Virus record (IMG/VR): IMGVR_UViG_2579778634_000010
Coordinates: 1 to 17,162 of that record
Direction: 5' to 3' (one strand)
DNA from: a virus
Taxonomy: Duplodnaviria; Heunggongvirae; Uroviricota; Caudoviricetes
DNA length: 17,162 bases
The notes under the pieces were generated by a model. It had not been told where the DNA came from and did no database searches. It worked only from the letters and a program-made list of their open reading frames with translations. The translations under genes and the position numbers were made by a program. Each line of letters opens with the position of its first letter. Position 1 is the stretch's first letter. Shown piece by piece: positions 610-16,791 of the stretch.

Positions 610-949
610 GTTTACTCTCATGAACTACATTATCGAATACTACAGTGACGAGGTTGAAGCTGAGATCCTTTCTCTTCCTGAGACCTTACAAGCCCGGTAC
701 ATTCGGTACACGGAGAAAATACGTATTTACGGAGCTAATCTTGGTTCCCCGCATACAGAGGCATTTGGCGACGGTTTGTTTGAAATCCGCCTTAAGGGCT
801 CGGAAGGCATAGGGCGTGTTTTTTACTGCACGCTAAAAGGAAAGCGAATCATTATGTTGCATAGCTTTGTAAAGAAAACGCAAAAAACTCCACCTGCCGA
901 GCTTAGAAAAGCTGAAACCAGAATGAAGGAGGTTAAGCATGACTGGTAA
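608..949 (+). CDS. RelE/ParE-superfamily toxin, HigB-like (Gp49-like)
   Basis: About 113 aa; MFTLMNYIIEYYSDEVEAEILSLPE...GRVFYCTLKGKRIIMLHSFVKKTQKTP typical of HigB/Gp49 toxins; overlaps the downstream HTH gene by 11 nt. Start uncertain (608 or 620); no clear SD. Confidence 0.65.
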   Translation: MFTLMNYIIEYYSDEVEAEILSLPETLQARYIRYTEKIRIYGANLGSPHTEAFGDGLFEIRLKGSEGIGRVFYCTLKGKRIIMLHSFVKKTQKTPPAELRKAETRMKEVKHDW

Positions 950-1247
950 ACGTACCCCACCTACCATGACACACGATGAAATGGTAGAAAAAATGTTGTC
1001 TAACCCCGCAGTAAAAGCAGAATACGACGCCATCGCCGATGAATTCGCACTACTTGATGAAATGCTGGCAGCACGAAAAGAAGCTGGCTTAACCCAGGCT
1101 GAAGTTGCTGAACGTATGGGAACAAAAGCGACTGCGATAACCAGAATGGAAAGCAATCTTGCATCAGGTACAAGCGGCCCATCATTTGCCACACTGAAAA
1201 AATTCGCCCGTGCTACAGGGAAAAAACTCCAGATCCGCTTCGTTTAA
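939..1247 (+). CDS. HTH XRE-family antitoxin, HigA-like
   Basis: 102 aa; AAGGAGG before ATG 939; HTH segment LTQAEVAERMGTKATAITRMES; toxin-first gene order typical of HigBA modules. Confidence 0.7.
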   Translation: MTGKRTPPTMTHDEMVEKMLSNPAVKAEYDAIADEFALLDEMLAARKEAGLTQAEVAERMGTKATAITRMESNLASGTSGPSFATLKKFARATGKKLQIRFV

Positions 1248-1301
1248 CTCTCCACTACCGCGCCGTCATTCTGGCGGCGCTTTACCCCAGAGAAATATCA
1301 A

Positions 1302-1547
1302 TCACCGGATTACCACATCCCACTCCGGCTCCTGCCATCTCAAATCCGGTGAATCATTTCTCTCAGGAATAACCATTACGTCCTTTTCCCTTCGCTCCCT
1401 TTCTATCGCCATCACAGCCAATGCTGTAACCATGATGTATTTTTGTTCGTCGGTTCCTGTTTCATAACGACGCATGAGGGTAAACTCGGGGCGATCAGTA
1501 ACCTCAATGATTTCGTTAATTTCTTTAATTTCGCGAGGAATATCCAT
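1302..1547 (-). CDS. Hypothetical small acidic protein (81 aa)
   Basis: ATG at 1547 with AGGAG 9 nt upstream on the - strand; its start overlaps the + strand start of the DUF4145 gene at an NcoI-like CCATGG; perfect 10-bp inverted repeat TCACCGGATT/AATCCGGTGA (1302..1311, 1343..1352) at its 3' end. Confidence 0.3.
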   Translation of the reverse strand: MDIPREIKEINEIIEVTDRPEFTLMRRYETGTDEQKYIMVTALAVMAIERERREKDVMVIPERNDSPDLRWQEPEWDVVIR

Positions 1548-2220
1548 GGGTTTAGTCTCCTTTGATATCACATGCCCGCACTGTTTAAAAGAGCGAGCTG
1601 TTATTGAGGCATTTGCCGAAAAACAAATTGAAAAAACACCTTTTTTTAACGTCGCTTTTGTATGCAGAAGTTGTCATCGAGGAGGTGTTGCTATTGTTGA
1701 AATCCCATCAGACCACTATCACGGTCCCATGGCGGAAAGCCAGAAAAAAGACCTCGATATTCTGATTTCAGGAAATAGCCAGTACCGTTTCCGCAAGATC
1801 TATCCTGTGGTCAAAAAAATTACCGCACCAGAATATACGCCCCCGGTTGCAGACCGTACTTTTGTTGAGGCAAAAGAGGATTTACAGAGGAGGCGGTACG
1901 ACACAGTGGTTATTCTTTGTCGCAGAGTCCTCGATATCTCCACGAAAAAACTGCTCGGCGATGAAGCAGGAAAAGAATCGCTGTCGCAACGTATTCAGAT
2001 GATTTACAAAAAAGGCCTGATCACTGAACAGATGAAGGAATGGGCTCATATTGTACGAATTGATGCCAATAAAGCAGTTCATACAGATGAAGTTTTCACA
2101 CCAATTGAGGCAAGCCAGATCCTGAGTTTTACCGAAATGTTTTTAGTCTACGCCTTCACTCTGCCTGCAATGGTGGAAGCCAGACGTGAACAAAAAAGAT
2201 CAGATTCAGCCTCTATATGA
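1546..2220 (+). CDS. Zinc-ribbon plus DUF4145-like domain protein; candidate anti-phage / exclusion gene
   Basis: 224 aa from ATG 1546 (GAGGA 6 nt upstream); N-terminal CPHC...CRSCH; C-terminal HIVRIDANKAVHTDEVFTPIEASQILSFTEMFLVYAF matches the DUF4145 signature as I remember it; opposite strand to the surrounding operon. Confidence 0.65.
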   Translation: MGLVSFDITCPHCLKERAVIEAFAEKQIEKTPFFNVAFVCRSCHRGGVAIVEIPSDHYHGPMAESQKKDLDILISGNSQYRFRKIYPVVKKITAPEYTPPVADRTFVEAKEDLQRRRYDTVVILCRRVLDISTKKLLGDEAGKESLSQRIQMIYKKGLITEQMKEWAHIVRIDANKAVHTDEVFTPIEASQILSFTEMFLVYAFTLPAMVEARREQKRSDSASI

Positions 2221-2252: not shown

Positions 2253-2684
2253 TCACGACGGGGAGAACATCAATCCCTCTGCACTCCCTCGCCAGAATGC
2301 CAGCACACGCTGCATCGTTTCGCTGTTACGGCACTCGCGACAAATTGTGTTGTAGCGTCTGTCGTAGCGCCGTATTTCCCCATCTGGTAATGCCCGGATA
2401 AGGTCTGGATCAACGACAACCGGTTTCTTCGACTTTGCCCTTGAGAGTTTTTTGCGGGCATTTTGCCAGTCCTTACGAGCCTGTTCAGACGGGAATACTC
2501 CGTAACCGGAATTGTAAACATCACCACTGGCGGCCAGCTCCATGCATAAACGACCGACAGACGCATGACTGACACCAATTTCATCCGATAACTGCCGAAT
2601 CGTGCCTCGTCCGTTAAGGCGTACGAATTCCACGATCAGCCCCTTAATTTTTTCCCGCTCTTCTGGTGTAAATGCTCTTGTCAT
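2253..2684 (-). CDS. Hypothetical HTH-containing protein (143 aa)
   Basis: ATG 2684 with GGAGGT upstream; HTH-like segment TIRQLSDEIGVSHASVGRL; last gene of the leftward early operon in this window. Confidence 0.6.
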   Translation of the reverse strand: MTRAFTPEEREKIKGLIVEFVRLNGRGTIRQLSDEIGVSHASVGRLCMELAASGDVYNSGYGVFPSEQARKDWQNARKKLSRAKSKKPVVVDPDLIRALPDGEIRRYDRRYNTICRECRNSETMQRVLAFWRGSAEGLMFSPS

Positions 2685-2699
2685 AAGCACCTCCGGAGA

Positions 2700-3470
2700 T
2701 CACTTTGTTGTCGGTGAATGAACCGGAATATCAGCAATCGAACTGAAAATATCCCGGTGTTTATTCAGCTCCCGCAGCGCGGCGCAGACTCGCTCCCACT
2801 TCTGAACATCACTTTTCGCCCTGCGCAGCGCCAGGTTTGCCCTGCGCAGGGACGGAAAAATCAGCTCATCTGCTTGCGTTTCGGTAAACGATGGCAACGA
2901 CTGCACAATGTCCGCCACAGTTTCTGTTTTAATTTCTTCCTGTGTTGCGGCTTCCCGGACTGGTAACGCAGCACCTGCTGGCTGAGGAAAGGCCTTACCA
3001 TCATTTTCCGTTACCGGCGCGGTTTTCGGATCTGCTGGTAAATTACCCCCCGGCATGCAGTAACGAAATTTACCGTTCTGATTAACGCGTGCCAGCCGCC
3101 CCGTTGCGGTTACCACCGCCAGCGTGGAAGCAACCTTGCGAGTGGTAACTCCGAACTTACCCGCTATTTCTTCACAGGTTTTAGCCCCCTCCTGAGAGAT
3201 AAACTCAATCATCATGTCAGCGCTAACTTTTGGAGCGACCTCTTCGGTCAGCATATCCTGTGTTTCAGATTTTACTGGCCGCTCTTCGGTTACCCGGGAT
3301 TCACCTTCGACAGCCAGAAACCAGGTGTGACCCGTTTTATCAACAACGCCATTTTTTTTGAGTTCCCACAGTTCGTTGAGAACTTCTTCACGGCTGATAT
3401 CAAGCCGCGCCGCCAGTTCAACAGAATTGGCTTTTCCCATCGCTTTCAGTGCATGCAATACGGTTTCCAT
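2700..3470 (-). CDS. Hypothetical winged-helix-like prophage protein (256 aa); possibly DUF1627-type
   Basis: ATG 3470 with GAGGT 9 nt upstream; directly downstream of the DnaC-like gene; family name is from memory only. Confidence 0.65.
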   Translation of the reverse strand: METVLHALKAMGKANSVELAARLDISREEVLNELWELKKNGVVDKTGHTWFLAVEGESRVTEERPVKSETQDMLTEEVAPKVSADMMIEFISQEGAKTCEEIAGKFGVTTRKVASTLAVVTATGRLARVNQNGKFRYCMPGGNLPADPKTAPVTENDGKAFPQPAGAALPVREAATQEEIKTETVADIVQSLPSFTETQADELIFPSLRRANLALRRAKSDVQKWERVCAALRELNKHRDIFSSIADIPVHSPTTK

Positions 3471-3495
3471 CGAAAATTTACCTCGTCAAAAATTC

Positions 3496-4236
3496 TCACA
3501 TACCCTGACGTCCAACGTTTGACCGCCAGCTCTCCCAGTTAAAATTCACCCAACGACCACCATTCATGGTCATACGGTCCATCACTCGCTCCCCCAGAAG
3601 CCTGCTCATCGCACCGTGATTCAGGTTAGTCAGCATCCCGACACTGCGCAGTGATGCCGTTCTGCGGTCGACGATCTGGTTCAGTATGACCTGCTCGTTG
3701 CGCGTATCCCGCTGCATGCCAATTTCATCAAGGACCAGAAGGTCAACTCCACAAAGCTCCTGTAAAAATTTTTCCCCGGACTTGCCGTTGTCGTAGCCGT
3801 CATGCAACACACTCATGACATCGGACACGGTGACGATAATCACGCTTCTCCCCTTCGCCATTAGCCAGTTGCCAATCGCTGCTGCAAGGTGATTTTTCCC
3901 GGTGCCAGGTTTACCGCTGAACACGAAATTCGTGCAGCCGGTATGCAGCTCTGCCGCGATGGATTTTGCCTGACTCAGAGCATGGCGCTGACCGTCGTTC
4001 TGCACCCGGTAGTTCCCGAATGAGCACTTCCTGTGAAGCGGCTGGATGCCCGAACGGTTCAGGATTTTTTCAACCCGCGCCTGATGATTCAGGCGGTTAA
4101 TTTCCTCGCTGCGCTTACGGCCCTCAGCCAGTTGCCATTCCCGCCATTCGTCGGTCGTCCGGAACGGTGCTGCCACGTGCGGTGGTGCCAGACGGCGCAC
4201 CCGTTCAAGAATCCCTCCTGTCGAAATGTTTTTCAT
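3496..4236 (-). CDS. DnaC-like helicase loader (IstB-type AAA+ ATPase)
   Basis: 246 aa; Walker A GKPGTGKNHLA, Walker B LLVLDEIG; start 6 nt after the stop of the O-like gene. Confidence 0.85.
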   Translation of the reverse strand: MKNISTGGILERVRRLAPPHVAAPFRTTDEWREWQLAEGRKRSEEINRLNHQARVEKILNRSGIQPLHRKCSFGNYRVQNDGQRHALSQAKSIAAELHTGCTNFVFSGKPGTGKNHLAAAIGNWLMAKGRSVIIVTVSDVMSVLHDGYDNGKSGEKFLQELCGVDLLVLDEIGMQRDTRNEQVILNQIVDRRTASLRSVGMLTNLNHGAMSRLLGERVMDRMTMNGGRWVNFNWESWRSNVGRQGM

Positions 4237-4242
4237 GGCTGA

Positions 4243-5343
4243 TTACCCCCTGAAACCCGGCGGAATTTCGGTGTCCGGTTCAGAAATGTGATTCACGCAA
4301 CGCAGGCTGACTGCGCCAGCCTTCGGCAGCGACCACGGATTTTCGAAATTCCTGTTCGGGCCAAAAAACGTCGATGCCTGCTGAACAAATTCAGTTCCCG
4401 CTTTCCCGGTAGCCTCCAGGTATCTTGCGTAACGCCTCACGCCATCCAGCACGACATCCGGTGACACCCCTTCGCGTAATCTGGCCCTCCAGGCATTGAA
4501 CGCGGATTTCTTCGGGTTTGACCCTGCCCGATGCGGATATTCACGCCAGACCCGTTCGAACACGTCAGGATAATCAACTCGTCCCGCAGACGGTCCCGGC
4601 ATCGCCCGGGTTAACCCAATCGGCTTCCCGCTCATCGCGGAATCGGCTTCAGGCTGCTGCGGTTGGCGTTGTTGCTCCGGTTCGACGATCAGCACCTGCT
4701 GCACACAACGCCCGGAATCTGCTTCCGGTGTCGTGCCAGCTGGTCCTGGACGTTCAGTCAGAACAGGACAAAAATCCCCCTGCGGGTCCGTGGCGATTTT
4801 TTCGCCATGGACCAGAAGGGTTTTATCCCTTTCCTGTTCTTGTTCTTGTTCCTGTTCCTGTTCCTGTTCCTGTTCTTGGCTTGAAAGGGGCTCTGAAGGG
4901 GCTTCAATTTTCCGACATGATTCACGTCTGACATCCAGGTGGAAATCATCCTTATATCTATCATAAAAGGATGATAAAAAAGGATTTTCCAGCAACGCGG
5001 AATATTCATTTCTTACCCCAGCACAACGGTTATCGCCAGGTTTCAGCGATTCACCAACCTGCCATGCTGCCATTTCATGCACCCATACAACCTCAGAATC
5101 ATGGTCATAGCTGCAAAAACCAGCCTCGCAAGCCATTTGAAGCCCCTTAGAAGCCCCTTCAGGATCAAGTCCGGTTTCGTGAGCAATGTACAAAACAGGC
5201 AGGTAATAAAGGCCCAGCATATTGGAATGAGGCGAGGTCATCATATACAACGCCACTACCATACATTCCGGACCAGACTTCCTTAGTTTTCTCCCTGTTT
5301 CGCCTAACCAGAACTGAGGTGAAATTGTTGCGTAATTACGCAT
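4243..5343 (-). CDS. Replication initiation protein, O-like (YdaU/DUF1376-type) with internal (EQ)n tract
   Basis: 366 aa; position between the cII-like and DnaC-like genes; N-terminus MRNYATISPQFWLGETGRKL; acidic EQEQEQ tract; family assignment from memory. Confidence 0.7.
   Translation of the reverse strand: MRNYATISPQFWLGETGRKLRKSGPECMVVALYMMTSPHSNMLGLYYLPVLYIAHETGLDPEGASKGLQMACEAGFCSYDHDSEVVWVHEMAAWQVGESLKPGDNRCAGVRNEYSALLENPFLSSFYDRYKDDFHLDVRRESCRKIEAPSEPLSSQEQEQEQEQEQEQEQERDKTLLVHGEKIATDPQGDFCPVLTERPGPAGTTPEADSGRCVQQVLIVEPEQQRQPQQPEADSAMSGKPIGLTRAMPGPSAGRVDYPDVFERVWREYPHRAGSNPKKSAFNAWRARLREGVSPDVVLDGVRRYARYLEATGKAGTEFVQQASTFFGPNRNFENPWSLPKAGAVSLRCVNHISEPDTEIPPGFRG
4834..4875. repeat. 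Hexanucleotide tandem repeat (CTGTTC/TTGTTC) x7 encoding (EQ)n on the - strand
   Basis: Seven consecutive 6-bp units read directly; in frame within the O-like CDS. Confidence 0.9.
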
Positions 5344-5483
5344 AGTCCCCTCGCATACAAGATTTACTCCATACCGCAGACGGTCCCGGTATCTCCCGGG
5401 TTAACCCAATCGGCTTCAGGCTGCTGCGGTTGGTGTTGTTGCTGGCGAAATTCTTCCAGATGTGGCAGAATTATTCCCGTGTA

Positions 5484-5560
5484 TTGCTCCATGCCCTGCC
5501 TGAATATCAGATATTCATCAGGATTTGCTCAGAACGTCCGGCCCCAACCGGACGTTTTTT
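5484..5560 (+). ncRNA. oop: OOP-like antisense RNA overlapping the 3' end of the cII-like gene
   Basis: 3' portion CAUCAGGAUUUGCUCAGAACGUCCGGCCCCAACCGGACGUUUUUUAUU closely resembles the lambda oop 3' end as I remember it; terminator stem 5534..5541/5548..5555 plus U-run 5555..5560; antisense to the last ~18 codons of cII. The 5' end is placed by analogy to the 77-nt lambda RNA. Confidence 0.6.
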
Positions 5561-5803
5561 ATTTGCATGAACGTTAATGGCATGCTGGAAAGCCCGGCTG
5601 ATCGGACTGATATCAGATGCCATCTGAAACGCGCATAAAATCGCCGCGATGTATCGCCAGTCGGTACGACTGACCTTCGATTCATGGCAGCCAATCATCT
5701 TCGCCAGTCCCCTTTGCGTCAGAGCTGACAGGTTGATAAGTAAATCCGTTTCAGCGCGATCGATATCGCGCTGTGACAGTTTGCTGTAACTTGTTTGTGA
5801 CAT
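5507..5803 (-). CDS. cII: CII-like transcriptional activator
   Basis: 98 aa; C-terminus HANKKRPVGAGRSEQILMNI resembles lambda CII (TNKKRPAATERSEQIQMEF); AGGAAA 8 nt upstream; position after cro and nutR. Confidence 0.8.
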   Translation of the reverse strand: MSQTSYSKLSQRDIDRAETDLLINLSALTQRGLAKMIGCHESKVSRTDWRYIAAILCAFQMASDISPISRAFQHAINVHANKKRPVGAGRSEQILMNI

Positions 5804-5871
5804 TTGTTAATTTTCCTATATTGATATGGGGTTAAGCGGCAATCCCCAATGGGTTTGCCACTGATGTTTGC

Positions 5872-5912
5872 TCACCCTGTTAGAGGTGAACGACCAGCAA
5901 TGTTAAAGAGCG
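5872..5912 (-). promoter_or_regulatory. nutR candidate: boxA CGCTCTTTAA (5912..5903) plus boxB hairpin (5889..5872)
   Basis: On the - strand GCTCTTTAACATTG is shared with the nutL candidate; it is followed by a 5-bp stem with an 8-nt loop containing CUAA; lies just after the cro stop, as nutR does in lambda. Confidence 0.55.
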
Positions 5913-5919
5913 GTGTTAC

Positions 5920-6144
5920 TTATTCAGCCTGGTTCGGATGAGGAAACAGGTGCGGTAAGTCCGGGCGAATTTCGTAAGCCTTAACCTGACCATTGGTGGC
6001 ATTAACGATAGCGAAAACTTTTTCAGGAGAAACTTTTCCGCCTCGCAACCATTTATGAACAGCGGGCTGTGATACGCCGCAATCAGCTGCAAGTCGTTTT
6101 TGACTGCCAACAATATTCAAGGCTCGCTGAATCACTAAATTCAT
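5920..6144 (-). CDS. cro: Cro-like HTH repressor
   Basis: About 75 aa from ATG 6144 (AGAGGT upstream); HTH QKRLAADCGVSQPAVHKWLRG; divergent from the cI-like gene across the operator region. Confidence 0.75.
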   Translation of the reverse strand: MNLVIQRALNIVGSQKRLAADCGVSQPAVHKWLRGGKVSPEKVFAIVNATNGQVKAYEIRPDLPHLFPHPNQAE

Positions 6145-6170
6145 GAGCATACCTCTACAGCAAATAAAGC

Positions 6171-6254
6171 ATAACCAAAAATAACATGAGTTATACACCA
6201 GGGCAATAACAATTGTTGTTTTACTTTTGATAACCGTGGTTATAGATTACAGGT
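6171..6254. promoter_or_regulatory. OR-like region: three operators (6181..6194, 6206..6219, 6230..6243) with divergent PR/PRM
   Basis: Sites ATAACATGAGTTAT, ATAACAATTGTTGT, ATAACCGTGGTTAT spaced 24-25 bp; extra half-site ATAACC at 6171; TAGATT at 6243..6248 ends 7 nt before the cI ATG (lambda PRM -10 is TAGATT); TATAAC on the - strand overlaps the cro-proximal site. Confidence 0.7.
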
Positions 6255-6962
6255 ATGAAAACATTCGCAGAAAGACTAAATGCCGCCATGAGTTCAGCCG
6301 GGTTGTCACAAGCACAACTTGCAGACATGGTGGGGGTATCACAACCAGCCATACAAAAGATGTCATCTGGTAAAACAACCGGATCACGTAAAATGGTCGA
6401 ATTAGCCAACGCGTTAAGAGTTCGCCCTGAATGGCTAAGCTCTGGTATAGGGTCAATGAGACCACAGAGCGCAGAAGAGCCATCTAATGCTCGGGAATCA
6501 TCTTTAAAAGCTATCGCCTGGGATGATCATCAAAATGATAATGACGAATTTGTTGCGCTCCCCCTTCTAAATATTTCACTTTCAGCTGGCGGAGGAAGTT
6601 GTGCATTGGAGGAGTCCGCAGAATTCTCTCTAGTTTTTAGGCGCTATTACCTGAAAAAAATGGGAGTTCCAGAAAAAGCGGCAAAGTTGGTCAGGGTTGT
6701 TGGGCAAAGCATGGAGCCAACACTCCATGATGGTGATGTGGTGGGGGTAAACACGCAAGATACGAGCATCAGGGATGGTAAAACATATGCAATTTGCCAA
6801 GCTGATTTGTTAAGGGTAAAAACGCTCATAGCCACGCCAACATCGGTAATTATCAGATCGATAAACCGCGAAGAGTATCCTGATGAAGTAATGAACAGAG
6901 AAGAATTCTACAAAAACGTAAGAATCATAGGGCGAGTGTTCTGGTCATCACATAGCTGGTAA
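6255..6962 (+). CDS. cI: CI-like repressor (N-terminal HTH, C-terminal S24/LexA-type autoprotease domain)
   Basis: 235 aa; HTH LSQAQLADMVGVSQPAIQKM; catalytic Ser in GQSMEP and Lys in LLRVKTL; no SD, so probably leaderless as in lambda. Confidence 0.85.
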   Translation: MKTFAERLNAAMSSAGLSQAQLADMVGVSQPAIQKMSSGKTTGSRKMVELANALRVRPEWLSSGIGSMRPQSAEEPSNARESSLKAIAWDDHQNDNDEFVALPLLNISLSAGGGSCALEESAEFSLVFRRYYLKKMGVPEKAAKLVRVVGQSMEPTLHDGDVVGVNTQDTSIRDGKTYAICQADLLRVKTLIATPTSVIIRSINREEYPDEVMNREEFYKNVRIIGRVFWSSHSW

Positions 6963-16093: not shown

Positions 16094-16257
16094 ATGCCTG
16101 CAATTTGGCATAGTTACATCCGTACAAAGGTCGGGTGGAGAGGCGTAATACAACACCCGCAAGGGGAATATGCCCAGAGCTTCTTATTTGGCTCAGTTGA
16201 CACCCGACCGCCAGCTACTAACTGGCGGTTATAAACTAAACAAATAAGGAGGTCATC

Positions 16258-16616: not shown

Positions 16617-16791
16617 TGCCTGTTATTCAGTGATAGCACAGTGTGCGGTCACATCCCCGATCAATGTCGGGAGGGCGACGAATACAACACCCGCAAGGGG
16701 AATAAGTCCGCGGTATCTTTTGGGCCGTTTCGAGCCTCCCGGCACCACATCTTGTGGTGGCATTTCTCGAAAAAAGCCAAAGGAGGTCATC

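Follow-up and report, generated by a model that had tools for sequence, protein, structure and literature searches.

A RAZR-like candidate defence gene and its head-to-head small gene in the early region of a lambdoid Escherichia coli prophage

The DNA analysed here, 17,162 nucleotides (nt) from the IMG/VR virus record IMGVR_UViG_2579778634_000010 (hereafter, the window), is the early region of a lambdoid, Shiga toxin (Stx)-phage-like Escherichia coli prophage. It contains a gene for a protein of 224 amino acids (aa) that, from its sequence and modelled structure, is a two-domain protein with a Cys4 zinc ribbon and a DUF4145/HEPN domain, the architecture of the defence ribonuclease (RNase) RAZR. 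This gene, called here the RNase gene after its putative activity, overlaps at its start codon with a divergent small gene for an acidic protein of 81 aa, and their head-to-head arrangement is, judged by its conservation, a real, conserved divergent pair. By analogy with RAZR, we consider it moderately probable that the pair consists of a prophage-borne, RAZR-like defence RNase and a lytic-phase partner, possibly for self-protection. The features of the pair are as follows.

1302-1547, minus strand: 81-aa gene, ATG at 1547..1545, stop at 1304..1302 (WP_000354247.1, annotated by PGAP as 'hypothetical protein'; phrog_8371)
1546-2220, plus strand: 224-aa gene, RAZR-like, ATG at 1546, stop at 2218-2220 (WP_032144013.1, annotated by PGAP as 'DUF4145 domain-containing protein')
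1545-1548, both strands: CATG start overlap of 2 nt (A1546, T1547), with the plus-strand ATG at 1546-1548 and the minus-strand ATG at 1547-1545, inside CCATGG at 1544-1549
1535-1539, plus strand: Shine-Dalgarno-like GAGGA for the 224-aa gene, 6 nt before its ATG, inside codons 3-5 of the small gene
1557-1562, minus strand: Shine-Dalgarno-like AAGGAG for the small gene (complement of these positions), 9 nt before its ATG, inside codons 4-6 of the 224-aa gene
1546-1803, plus strand: predicted zinc-ribbon domain, residues 1-86, with C10, C13, C40 and C43 encoded within 1573-1674
1804-1845, plus strand: Pro-containing linker, residues 87-100, with invariant P87, P95 and P99
1846-2175, plus strand: predicted DUF4145/HEPN domain, residues 101-210
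2056-2058, 2068-2070 and 2080-2082, plus strand: putative catalytic residues R171, N175 and H179

The divergent pair and its conservation

An earlier note on this DNA had proposed that the 224-aa protein combines an N-terminal CxxC...CxxC ribbon with a DUF4145 signature. Both parts were confirmed: the ribbon motifs are CPHC (residues 10-13) and CRSC (residues 40-43), with all four Cys invariant, and the Pfam check matched PF13643 (DUF4145) over residues 118-197 (E 3.9e-9, 36.9 bits against a curated cutoff of 23.1). In an alignment of 37 homologues, C10, C13, C40, C43, R171, N175 and H179 are among the invariant residues, and the four Cys and the R171-x3-N175-x3-H179 motif are present in all 67 distinct family members identified below. 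A search of 5.8 billion protein clusters retrieved 83 clusters of relatives, all of them with PF13643 and mostly of 212-224 aa, from Enterobacterales and a few Burkholderiales; no NCBIfam model matched either this protein or the 81-aa protein.

The AlphaFold2 (AF2) model of the 224-aa protein has a mean predicted local distance difference test (pLDDT) score of 90.2. The modelled ribbon region comprises beta strands at residues 4-6, 20-27, 33-40, 46-52, 72-75 and 81-86 and a helix at 61-68, and shows weak profile matches to RPB9/TFIIS-type ribbons, including 1qyp. The predicted protein displays the alpha-helical HEPN fold, and its top structural matches include toxins of HEPN-MNT systems (5yep, 7ae2). 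The ribbon is the most variable part of the family, with a mean majority-residue fraction of 0.48 versus 0.77 for the HEPN part. For instance, one E. coli allele shows only 70% identity to the 224-aa protein despite flanks of at least 96% identity, and the differences cluster in the ribbon and in the first helices of the HEPN domain.

We evaluated the conservation of the pair in 134 loci, fetched through protein look-up and scans of GTDB genomes and IMG/VR, from which 67 distinct RNase-family proteins were left after removal of identical ones. A small gene is set head-to-head at a CATG junction in 39 of these (class A) and is missing in 27 (class B), with a single ambiguous case. All 39 class A pairs have the CATG junction, in the contexts TCATGG, CCATGG, ACATGG, GCATGG, CCATGA, TCATGC and TCATGA, and comparable purine-rich motifs occupy the position of GAGGA in other lineages. 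Class A proteins range from 35 to 100% identity to that of the window, form 22 clusters at 80% identity and extend from Enterobacterales, including Photorhabdus, to one betaproteobacterial (Zoogloeaceae) genome. Likewise, a hidden Markov model (HMM) of the small protein found matches among the six-frame open reading frames (ORFs) of 74 of 119 loci, with model position 1 lying, in nearly all of them, on the opposite strand and exactly 1 nt rightward of the RNase ATG. Scanning IMG/VR with a degenerate DNA pattern for RPEFTLMQRYE retrieved 13 contigs, every one of which also carries the RNase gene. Neither the upstream in-frame ATG at 1474 for the RNase gene (248 aa) nor the alternative GTG start at 1571 for the small gene (89 aa) is conserved in relatives.

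The two ORFs are annotated in RefSeq/GenBank, have full-length PHROG matches (phrog_1305, E 1.3e-63, for the 224-aa protein; phrog_8371, E 1.4e-55, for the 81-aa protein) and recur in the same arrangement across about 50% protein divergence, indicating that the pair is more than a product of chance. The start codons overlapping at CCATGG, each with its Shine-Dalgarno motif, had also been described in the earlier note, which left open whether this was an unusual divergent pair or involved one false ORF. The conserved junction, the annotation of both products by PGAP and PHROG and the codon pattern described next settle this question in favour of a real pair, with neither ORF false.

The 81-aa ORF is, from its pattern of substitutions and its distribution, a real protein-coding gene of a previously undescribed family. 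We compared five sequences standing for four diverged lineages over 53 codons, and differences in the 81-aa frame fell at third positions 27-36 times versus 11-21 times at positions 1 and 2. This excess, of about twofold, points to selection on the protein. The protein is acidic, as had been noted earlier, with an isoelectric point of 4.6 and 20 acidic versus 13 basic residues. Its family is small: an exhaustive HMMER search of 1.84 billion representatives retrieved six relatives, three of them at 43-52% identity, and a profile search of 5.8 billion clusters retrieved 59, all 'hypothetical' and none with a Pfam domain, from Yersinia, Proteus, Morganella, Serratia, Klebsiella, Photorhabdus, Xenorhabdus and other hosts. 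The AF2 model predicts helices at residues 3-16, 20-30 and 33-57; residues 1-50 score above 93 in pLDDT, and the variable tail is disordered. The conserved core motif reads DRPEFTLMQRYE...(E/D)QK...ALIGKLIE. A small ORF that some gene callers miss, and that is labelled just 'hypothetical' where called, thus represents a real gene family.

Three minor observations concern the small gene. Immediately upstream of the RNase ribosome-binding site, the plus strand contains a 9-nt tandem repeat, ATTTCGTTA, in 2.7 copies (1510-1533), which on the other strand encodes the EIK-EIN-EII of the first helix of the small protein and is specific to the E. coli lineage of the window; this may be a peculiarity of the coding sequence or else an operator-like element. 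In several lineages the small-gene homologue overlaps the start of ninB. We considered P22 ninA as a possible relative and rejected it, as it is a 26-codon ORF over a terminator.

Relationship to RAZR and other HEPN proteins

RAZR (ring-activated zinc-finger RNase), from E. coli UMB1727, was discovered as PD-T7-4 by Vassallo et al. 2022 and its structure is available as PDB 9y9c (Zhang et al., Nature 2026; PMC13017515). It is the sole characterised protein combining a zinc ribbon with DUF4145, and acts as an abortive-infection RNase (PMC13017515). Its zinc finger binds ring-shaped phage proteins, namely the portal and an unrelated putative recombinase, Gp77, around which RAZR assembles as a 24-mer; the oligomer activates a HEPN RNase that cleaves RNA non-specifically, depending on R146 and H154, and translation stops (PMC13017515). 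The zinc-finger domain sets specificity and is the most variable part of the protein, the linker at residues 66-79 is functionally required, and the ribbon has been compared, as done here, to RPB9-type ribbons (PMC13017515). DUF4145 had been placed in the HEPN superfamily already in 2013, when its fusions to zinc ribbons and its occurrence in double-stranded DNA viruses were also noted (PMC3710099).

For comparison, we rebuilt the RAZR-Ec sequence from two database fragments, with a numbering that agrees with the paper (AGN at 68-70, R146, H154); residue numbering also served to identify PDB 9y9c, a 24-chain DUF4145 protein, as RAZR-Ec. In BLASTP, the 224-aa protein aligned with RAZR-Ec at 24% identity over 141 aa (E 3e-5), limited to the HEPN part, and the profile-profile comparison with hhalign (84% probability, E 7e-6) was likewise confined to this part. 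The family profile matched PDB 9y9c weakly (E 0.089), aligning RiDsNgavH with RIVGNQAVH and placing P87, P95 and P99 opposite RAZR P66, P74 and P79, within or beside the RAZR linker. The PADLOC model for PD-T7-4 matched the window protein with E 0.0022 (15.5 bits) and 21 of 37 family members, the best with E 2.8e-7. A single-sequence phmmer search of PDB sequences with the 224-aa protein found nothing.

The two proteins share a length of around 220 aa, an N-terminal Cys4 ribbon, a C-terminal DUF4145/HEPN domain and an R-x3-N-x3-H motif, in which the spacing of RAZR R146 and H154 equals that of R171 and H179. Each also has a Pro-containing linker, which may be conserved between them. In both, the ribbon is the most variable region and the gene is carried on mobile elements. 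They differ in the ribbon, which is about 30 residues larger in the window protein (from C43 to P87, versus C52 to P66 in RAZR), and in their genomic context. The RAZR-Ec gene follows immediately after an integrase gene in the same orientation, and no ORF lies head-to-head with it, whereas the family described here occurs in lambdoid prophage operons, against their grain and often with the small partner gene. From these alignments, RAZR is the closest characterised relative of the 224-aa protein, which is nonetheless distant from it, sharing its architecture without being a clear member of the RAZR family. Given its larger and different putative sensor domain, the window family probably recognises other phage structures.

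In the course of these comparisons we also found close relatives of RAZR of 168 aa, in E. coli and metagenome loci (L022-L024), that contain only the second CxxC and lie in integrase/insertion sequence islands. These are not mis-called RAZR genes, because they have stop codons upstream and are genuinely shorter; they appear to be half-ribbon variants of RAZR.

Another candidate for comparison is DS-38 from the DefensePredictor screen, an E. coli protein validated in defence that has HEPN and zinc-finger domains and of which only the HEPN part aligns with PD-T7-4 (bioRxiv 10.1101/2025.01.08.631726). DS-38 and the 224-aa protein are alike by description, as E. coli accessory genes with HEPN and zinc finger, and we take this only as a lead to their possible identity. 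Members of the 224-aa family occur in the ECOR-derived phages PhiR12_3 (host listed as ECOR13) and PhiR5_2. Other HEPN RNases, namely HEPN-MNT toxins, the C-terminal domain of AbiA, LsoA/RnlA, Csm6 and HepS of Gifsy-1, show at most 16% identity among the matches listed, and have other partner domains and triggers; none of them has a zinc ribbon or a head-to-head small gene.

Transcription signals, proposed function and alternatives

The features of the window relevant to expression of the pair are as follows.

2253-6198, minus strand: early operon, with cro, cII, an O-like gene, a DnaC-like gene, DUF1627 and DUF977
6255-6962, plus strand: S24-type repressor
719-1247, plus strand: Gp49/RelE-family toxin and helix-turn-helix (HTH) antitoxin pair, directly left of the small gene
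1260-1280, plus strand: GC-rich hairpin separating the stop codons of the antitoxin and small genes (-16.5 kcal/mol, z -4.6), with CUUUA after it
2244-2263, both strands: GC-rich hairpin between the convergent 224-aa and DUF977 genes (-14.5 kcal/mol on plus, -16.9 kcal/mol on minus, z about -2.5), with no U tract
1443-1470, plus strand: weak candidate promoter of the 224-aa gene, TTGTTC (1443-1448), a 16-nt spacer and TAACGA (1465-1470)

As the early operon is on the minus strand, early rightward transcription runs leftward in window coordinates. The RNase gene thus opposes the operon and the small gene is co-directional with it, in agreement with the opposite orientation of the former reported in the earlier note; its placement in an accessory zone beside a toxin-antitoxin pair, also reported there, is likewise confirmed. 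Across the family, 91% of the flanking long-ORF bases in class A, and 81% in class B, are on the strand opposite the RNase gene. In these prophages it is consistently a lone gene and occupies one of two slots, the first flanked by the replication genes and ninB and the second by the lysis and terminase genes.

The hairpin at 1260-1280 is terminator-like for the plus-strand toxin-antitoxin transcript and lies at the left edge of the conserved block, and that at 2244-2263 marks the right edge of the module. Bracketed by both, the RNase gene probably has its own promoter inside the DNA of the small gene. A matrix scan revealed, in many diverged class A loci, a sigma-70-like TTGnTC-16-TAnnnT whose end is at -76 relative to the ATG and whose score reaches up to 12. 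The TTG of this candidate is the Gln codon of the (E/D)QK motif of the small protein, which is CAA in 32 of 32 distinct sequences versus a baseline of 61%, and a preceding Asp codon is always GAT, so that the RNase strand reads TTGATC, TTGTTC or TTGCTC around 100 nt upstream of the ATG. This codon usage, at 1440-1448 and equivalent positions, is a nucleotide-level constraint that is not explained by the protein sequence. In the window (TAACGA) and nine other sequences the -10 hexamer is defective, as it lacks the final T, and for this reason we do not claim a promoter; TAAACT at 1481-1486 is an alternative -10. As a side observation, the 9-mer CCGTCATTC occurs in both hairpins (1263-1271 and 2246-2254). 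We discarded it as a meaningful signal because, although its placement is striking, around three such pairs per 1.2 kb are estimated by chance.

The reading that we consider moderately probable has the RNase gene expressed in the lysogen from its own promoter within the small gene, and its product guarding the host against superinfecting phages in the manner of RAZR, with the variable zinc ribbon as sensor and the HEPN domain cleaving RNA. Because the starts overlap, the transcript of either gene would be antisense to the 5' end of the other, and early lytic transcription, should it extend as far as the small gene, would be antisense to the whole RNase gene. Upon induction or infection, early transcription could thus traverse the RNase gene in antisense before the small protein is translated, and this protein might modulate or neutralise the RNase for the lytic growth of the phage itself. 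The defence component has a concrete basis in the RAZR-type architecture, the catalytic motif and the position as a lone prophage gene set against the grain. The weakest step is the role of the small gene in lytic-phase control or self-protection, which we advance tentatively and with less than even confidence. Its interest is that a prophage whose abortive-infection nuclease responds to phage assemblies has a self-targeting problem on induction, for which the small gene is a candidate solution.

Exclusion genes accompanied by phage-encoded self-protection are known from lambda, in rexAB and ren (the Ren/Rex relation). In the P22 record, sieB opposes the pL operon and the annotation of esc is that of a protection against self-exclusion, and the proposed self-protection would be akin to that of Esc against SieB. 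The likeness to P22 sieB/esc is of logic only (an exclusion gene against the early operon, expressed in the lysogen, and a phage factor that spares the phage itself), and neither this pair nor rexAB/ren has a sequence or structural relation to the pair in the window. Moreover, Esc is an internal product of sieB, whereas the small gene of the window is a divergent gene with a hypothetical role.

A more specific version of the same idea, which we regard as unlikely albeit arguable, is a two-state prophage switch. The RNase would guard lysogeny, and lytic transcription would both silence its gene in antisense and produce a three-helix off switch binding to HEPN, so that the ring-forming proteins of the prophage itself (portal, recombinase) would not trigger suicide. 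Were this true, RAZR-type nucleases, which were explained mechanistically only in 2026, would have their first natural inhibitor in the 81-aa family, and the CATG overlap would physically couple a defence gene to an off switch owned by the phage. If the small protein does inhibit the nuclease, it would also be a ready-made anti-defence tool.

Several results weigh against the proposed function. All statements on defence, RNase activity, oligomerisation and trigger extend what is known of RAZR to this family, and the similarity to RAZR is weak and limited to HEPN; the zinc ribbons are not alignable, so the mode of sensing may differ. The DefensePredictor preprint argues likewise for DS-38. A consensus scan upstream of 1546 found no promoter, and the candidate from the matrix scan is unconvincing in the window. 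Structure comparison of the 81-aa protein gave no informative relative. Finally, the dependence within the pair is one-way, as the RNase gene occurs without the small gene and the small gene almost never without the RNase gene. The class B proteins keep all motifs, some of them being nested in class A diversity, and in the class B loci examined the gene lies between the lysis and terminase genes; in two other loci (L060, L061) an intact RNase gene stands next to a decayed small ORF of 32 and 39 codons, respectively. Conversely, E. coli prophages of the phiSTEC1589-Stx1c type (L017) contain an intact small gene without the RNase gene, the sole such case seen, and similarity to them breaks exactly at the start codons.

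Such distributions would fit a defensive RNase gene accompanied by a small gene that is a regular early gene of the nin region, functionally unconnected to it, the pair being a frozen accident in which overlapping starts and reciprocal ribosome-binding sites leave no neutral place for recombination or indels. This explanation is the main rival, and we think it improbable, though deserving of serious weight. It is favoured by the persistence of the RNase gene alone in other slots or beside decayed copies, by that of the small gene alone in prophages with a breakpoint exactly at the start codons, and by the overlap with ninB, in the way of a normal operon member. Against it, the family of the small protein is tiny, as shown by the six representatives and 59 clusters retrieved, and its occurrence falls within the range of the RNase family, including all 13 independent IMG/VR contigs, which is unexpected for a generic nin gene in the highly mosaic lambdoid phages. 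Furthermore, the divergence of the small protein follows that of the distal HEPN part (Spearman 0.73, partial 0.68) and not that of the zinc ribbon (partial -0.01), even though the ribbon is the part of the RNase gene that adjoins the small gene on the DNA. This apparent co-divergence is only suggestive, since pairwise distances lack independence and the ribbon is fast-evolving.

The pair might also be a toxin-antitoxin module, with a constitutively toxic HEPN RNase and a small acidic antitoxin stabilising the prophage, in line with the toxins of HEPN-MNT systems among the top structural matches, the size and acidity of the partner and the presence of another toxin-antitoxin pair next door. 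We find this very improbable. Divergent genes with overlapping starts do not allow the co-transcription in an operon or the autoregulation that characterise type II systems, and an intact HEPN gene with every catalytic residue is found in loci that lack the small gene (class B) or have only a truncated one (L060, L061). RAZR alone, besides, is tolerated, and cells arrest only when a phage trigger is co-produced (PMC13017515). Almost as improbable is that the 224-aa protein is a regulatory or nucleic-acid-binding protein of the phage, or an RNase for phage gene expression or control of lysogeny. Zinc ribbons often bind nucleic acids and phrog_1305 is labelled 'DNA binding protein', a label copied by RefSeq phage records; we found, however, no experimental basis for this label, nor an HTH or other DNA-binding domain in the protein. 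The catalytic motif of HEPN is invariant, the N-terminal domain is hypervariable and sensor-like, the gene is positioned as a moron against the grain in two prophage slots, and the protein is homologous to a validated defence protein; all of this points instead to defence.

Genomic neighbourhood of the pair

The 1.1-kb region is found with 98-100% identity in Escherichia phage PhiR5_2 and in the Shigella Stx phages 75/02 and POCJ13, and its central part (1250-2241) with 96% identity in PhiR12_3, to which similarity stops at 2241. From 5426 complete E. coli genomes, 93 have at least a partial match, and 36 of these hold at least 80% of the region. The conserved block common to otherwise different loci has its left edge near 1251. 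Among the loci compared (the window, L003, L004 and L017), a block of 300 bp with the small gene is 92-100% conserved, whereas the toxin-antitoxin cassette and the RNase allele on either side differ.

In the phiSTEC1589-Stx1c-type prophages, the slot of the RNase gene is occupied by an unrelated gene of 166 aa and unknown function (3606-4106 of L017, minus strand; phrog_25397, no Pfam match) on the operon strand, and around 300 bp of non-coding DNA separate it from the small gene. The slot to the left of the small gene (around 500-1250 in the window) is a replaceable cassette, with a Gp49/RelE-type toxin and HTH in the window, HigB-like and HTH in L004, and TumE and HVO_A0114-type in L017.

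Also to the left, two Rfam families match the minus strand above gathering score, C4 antisense RNA at 354-438 and the Hfq-binding RNA isrK at 464-541, just downstream of a sigma-70-like TTGACG-18-TATATT site at 577-548 on the same strand. This segment (354-541) looks like a P1/P7-type c4/antirepressor immunity region adjoining the toxin-antitoxin pair. As a consequence, the call of a 155-aa ORF at 482-949 overstates the toxin gene, for which PGAP gives 719-949.

Further to the right in the window, the plus strand contains the bet/exo genes and the integrase gene. Beyond the latter, near the right end, there are two plus-strand copies of sRNA-Xcc1 (16129-16217 and 16666-16751), with Rfam scores of 69 and 73 bits versus a gathering score of 53. 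Lastly, the O-like replication gene (4243-5343, minus strand) includes a hexamer repeat, TTCCTG in 7.5 copies at 4831-4875, that encodes an (EQ)n run.

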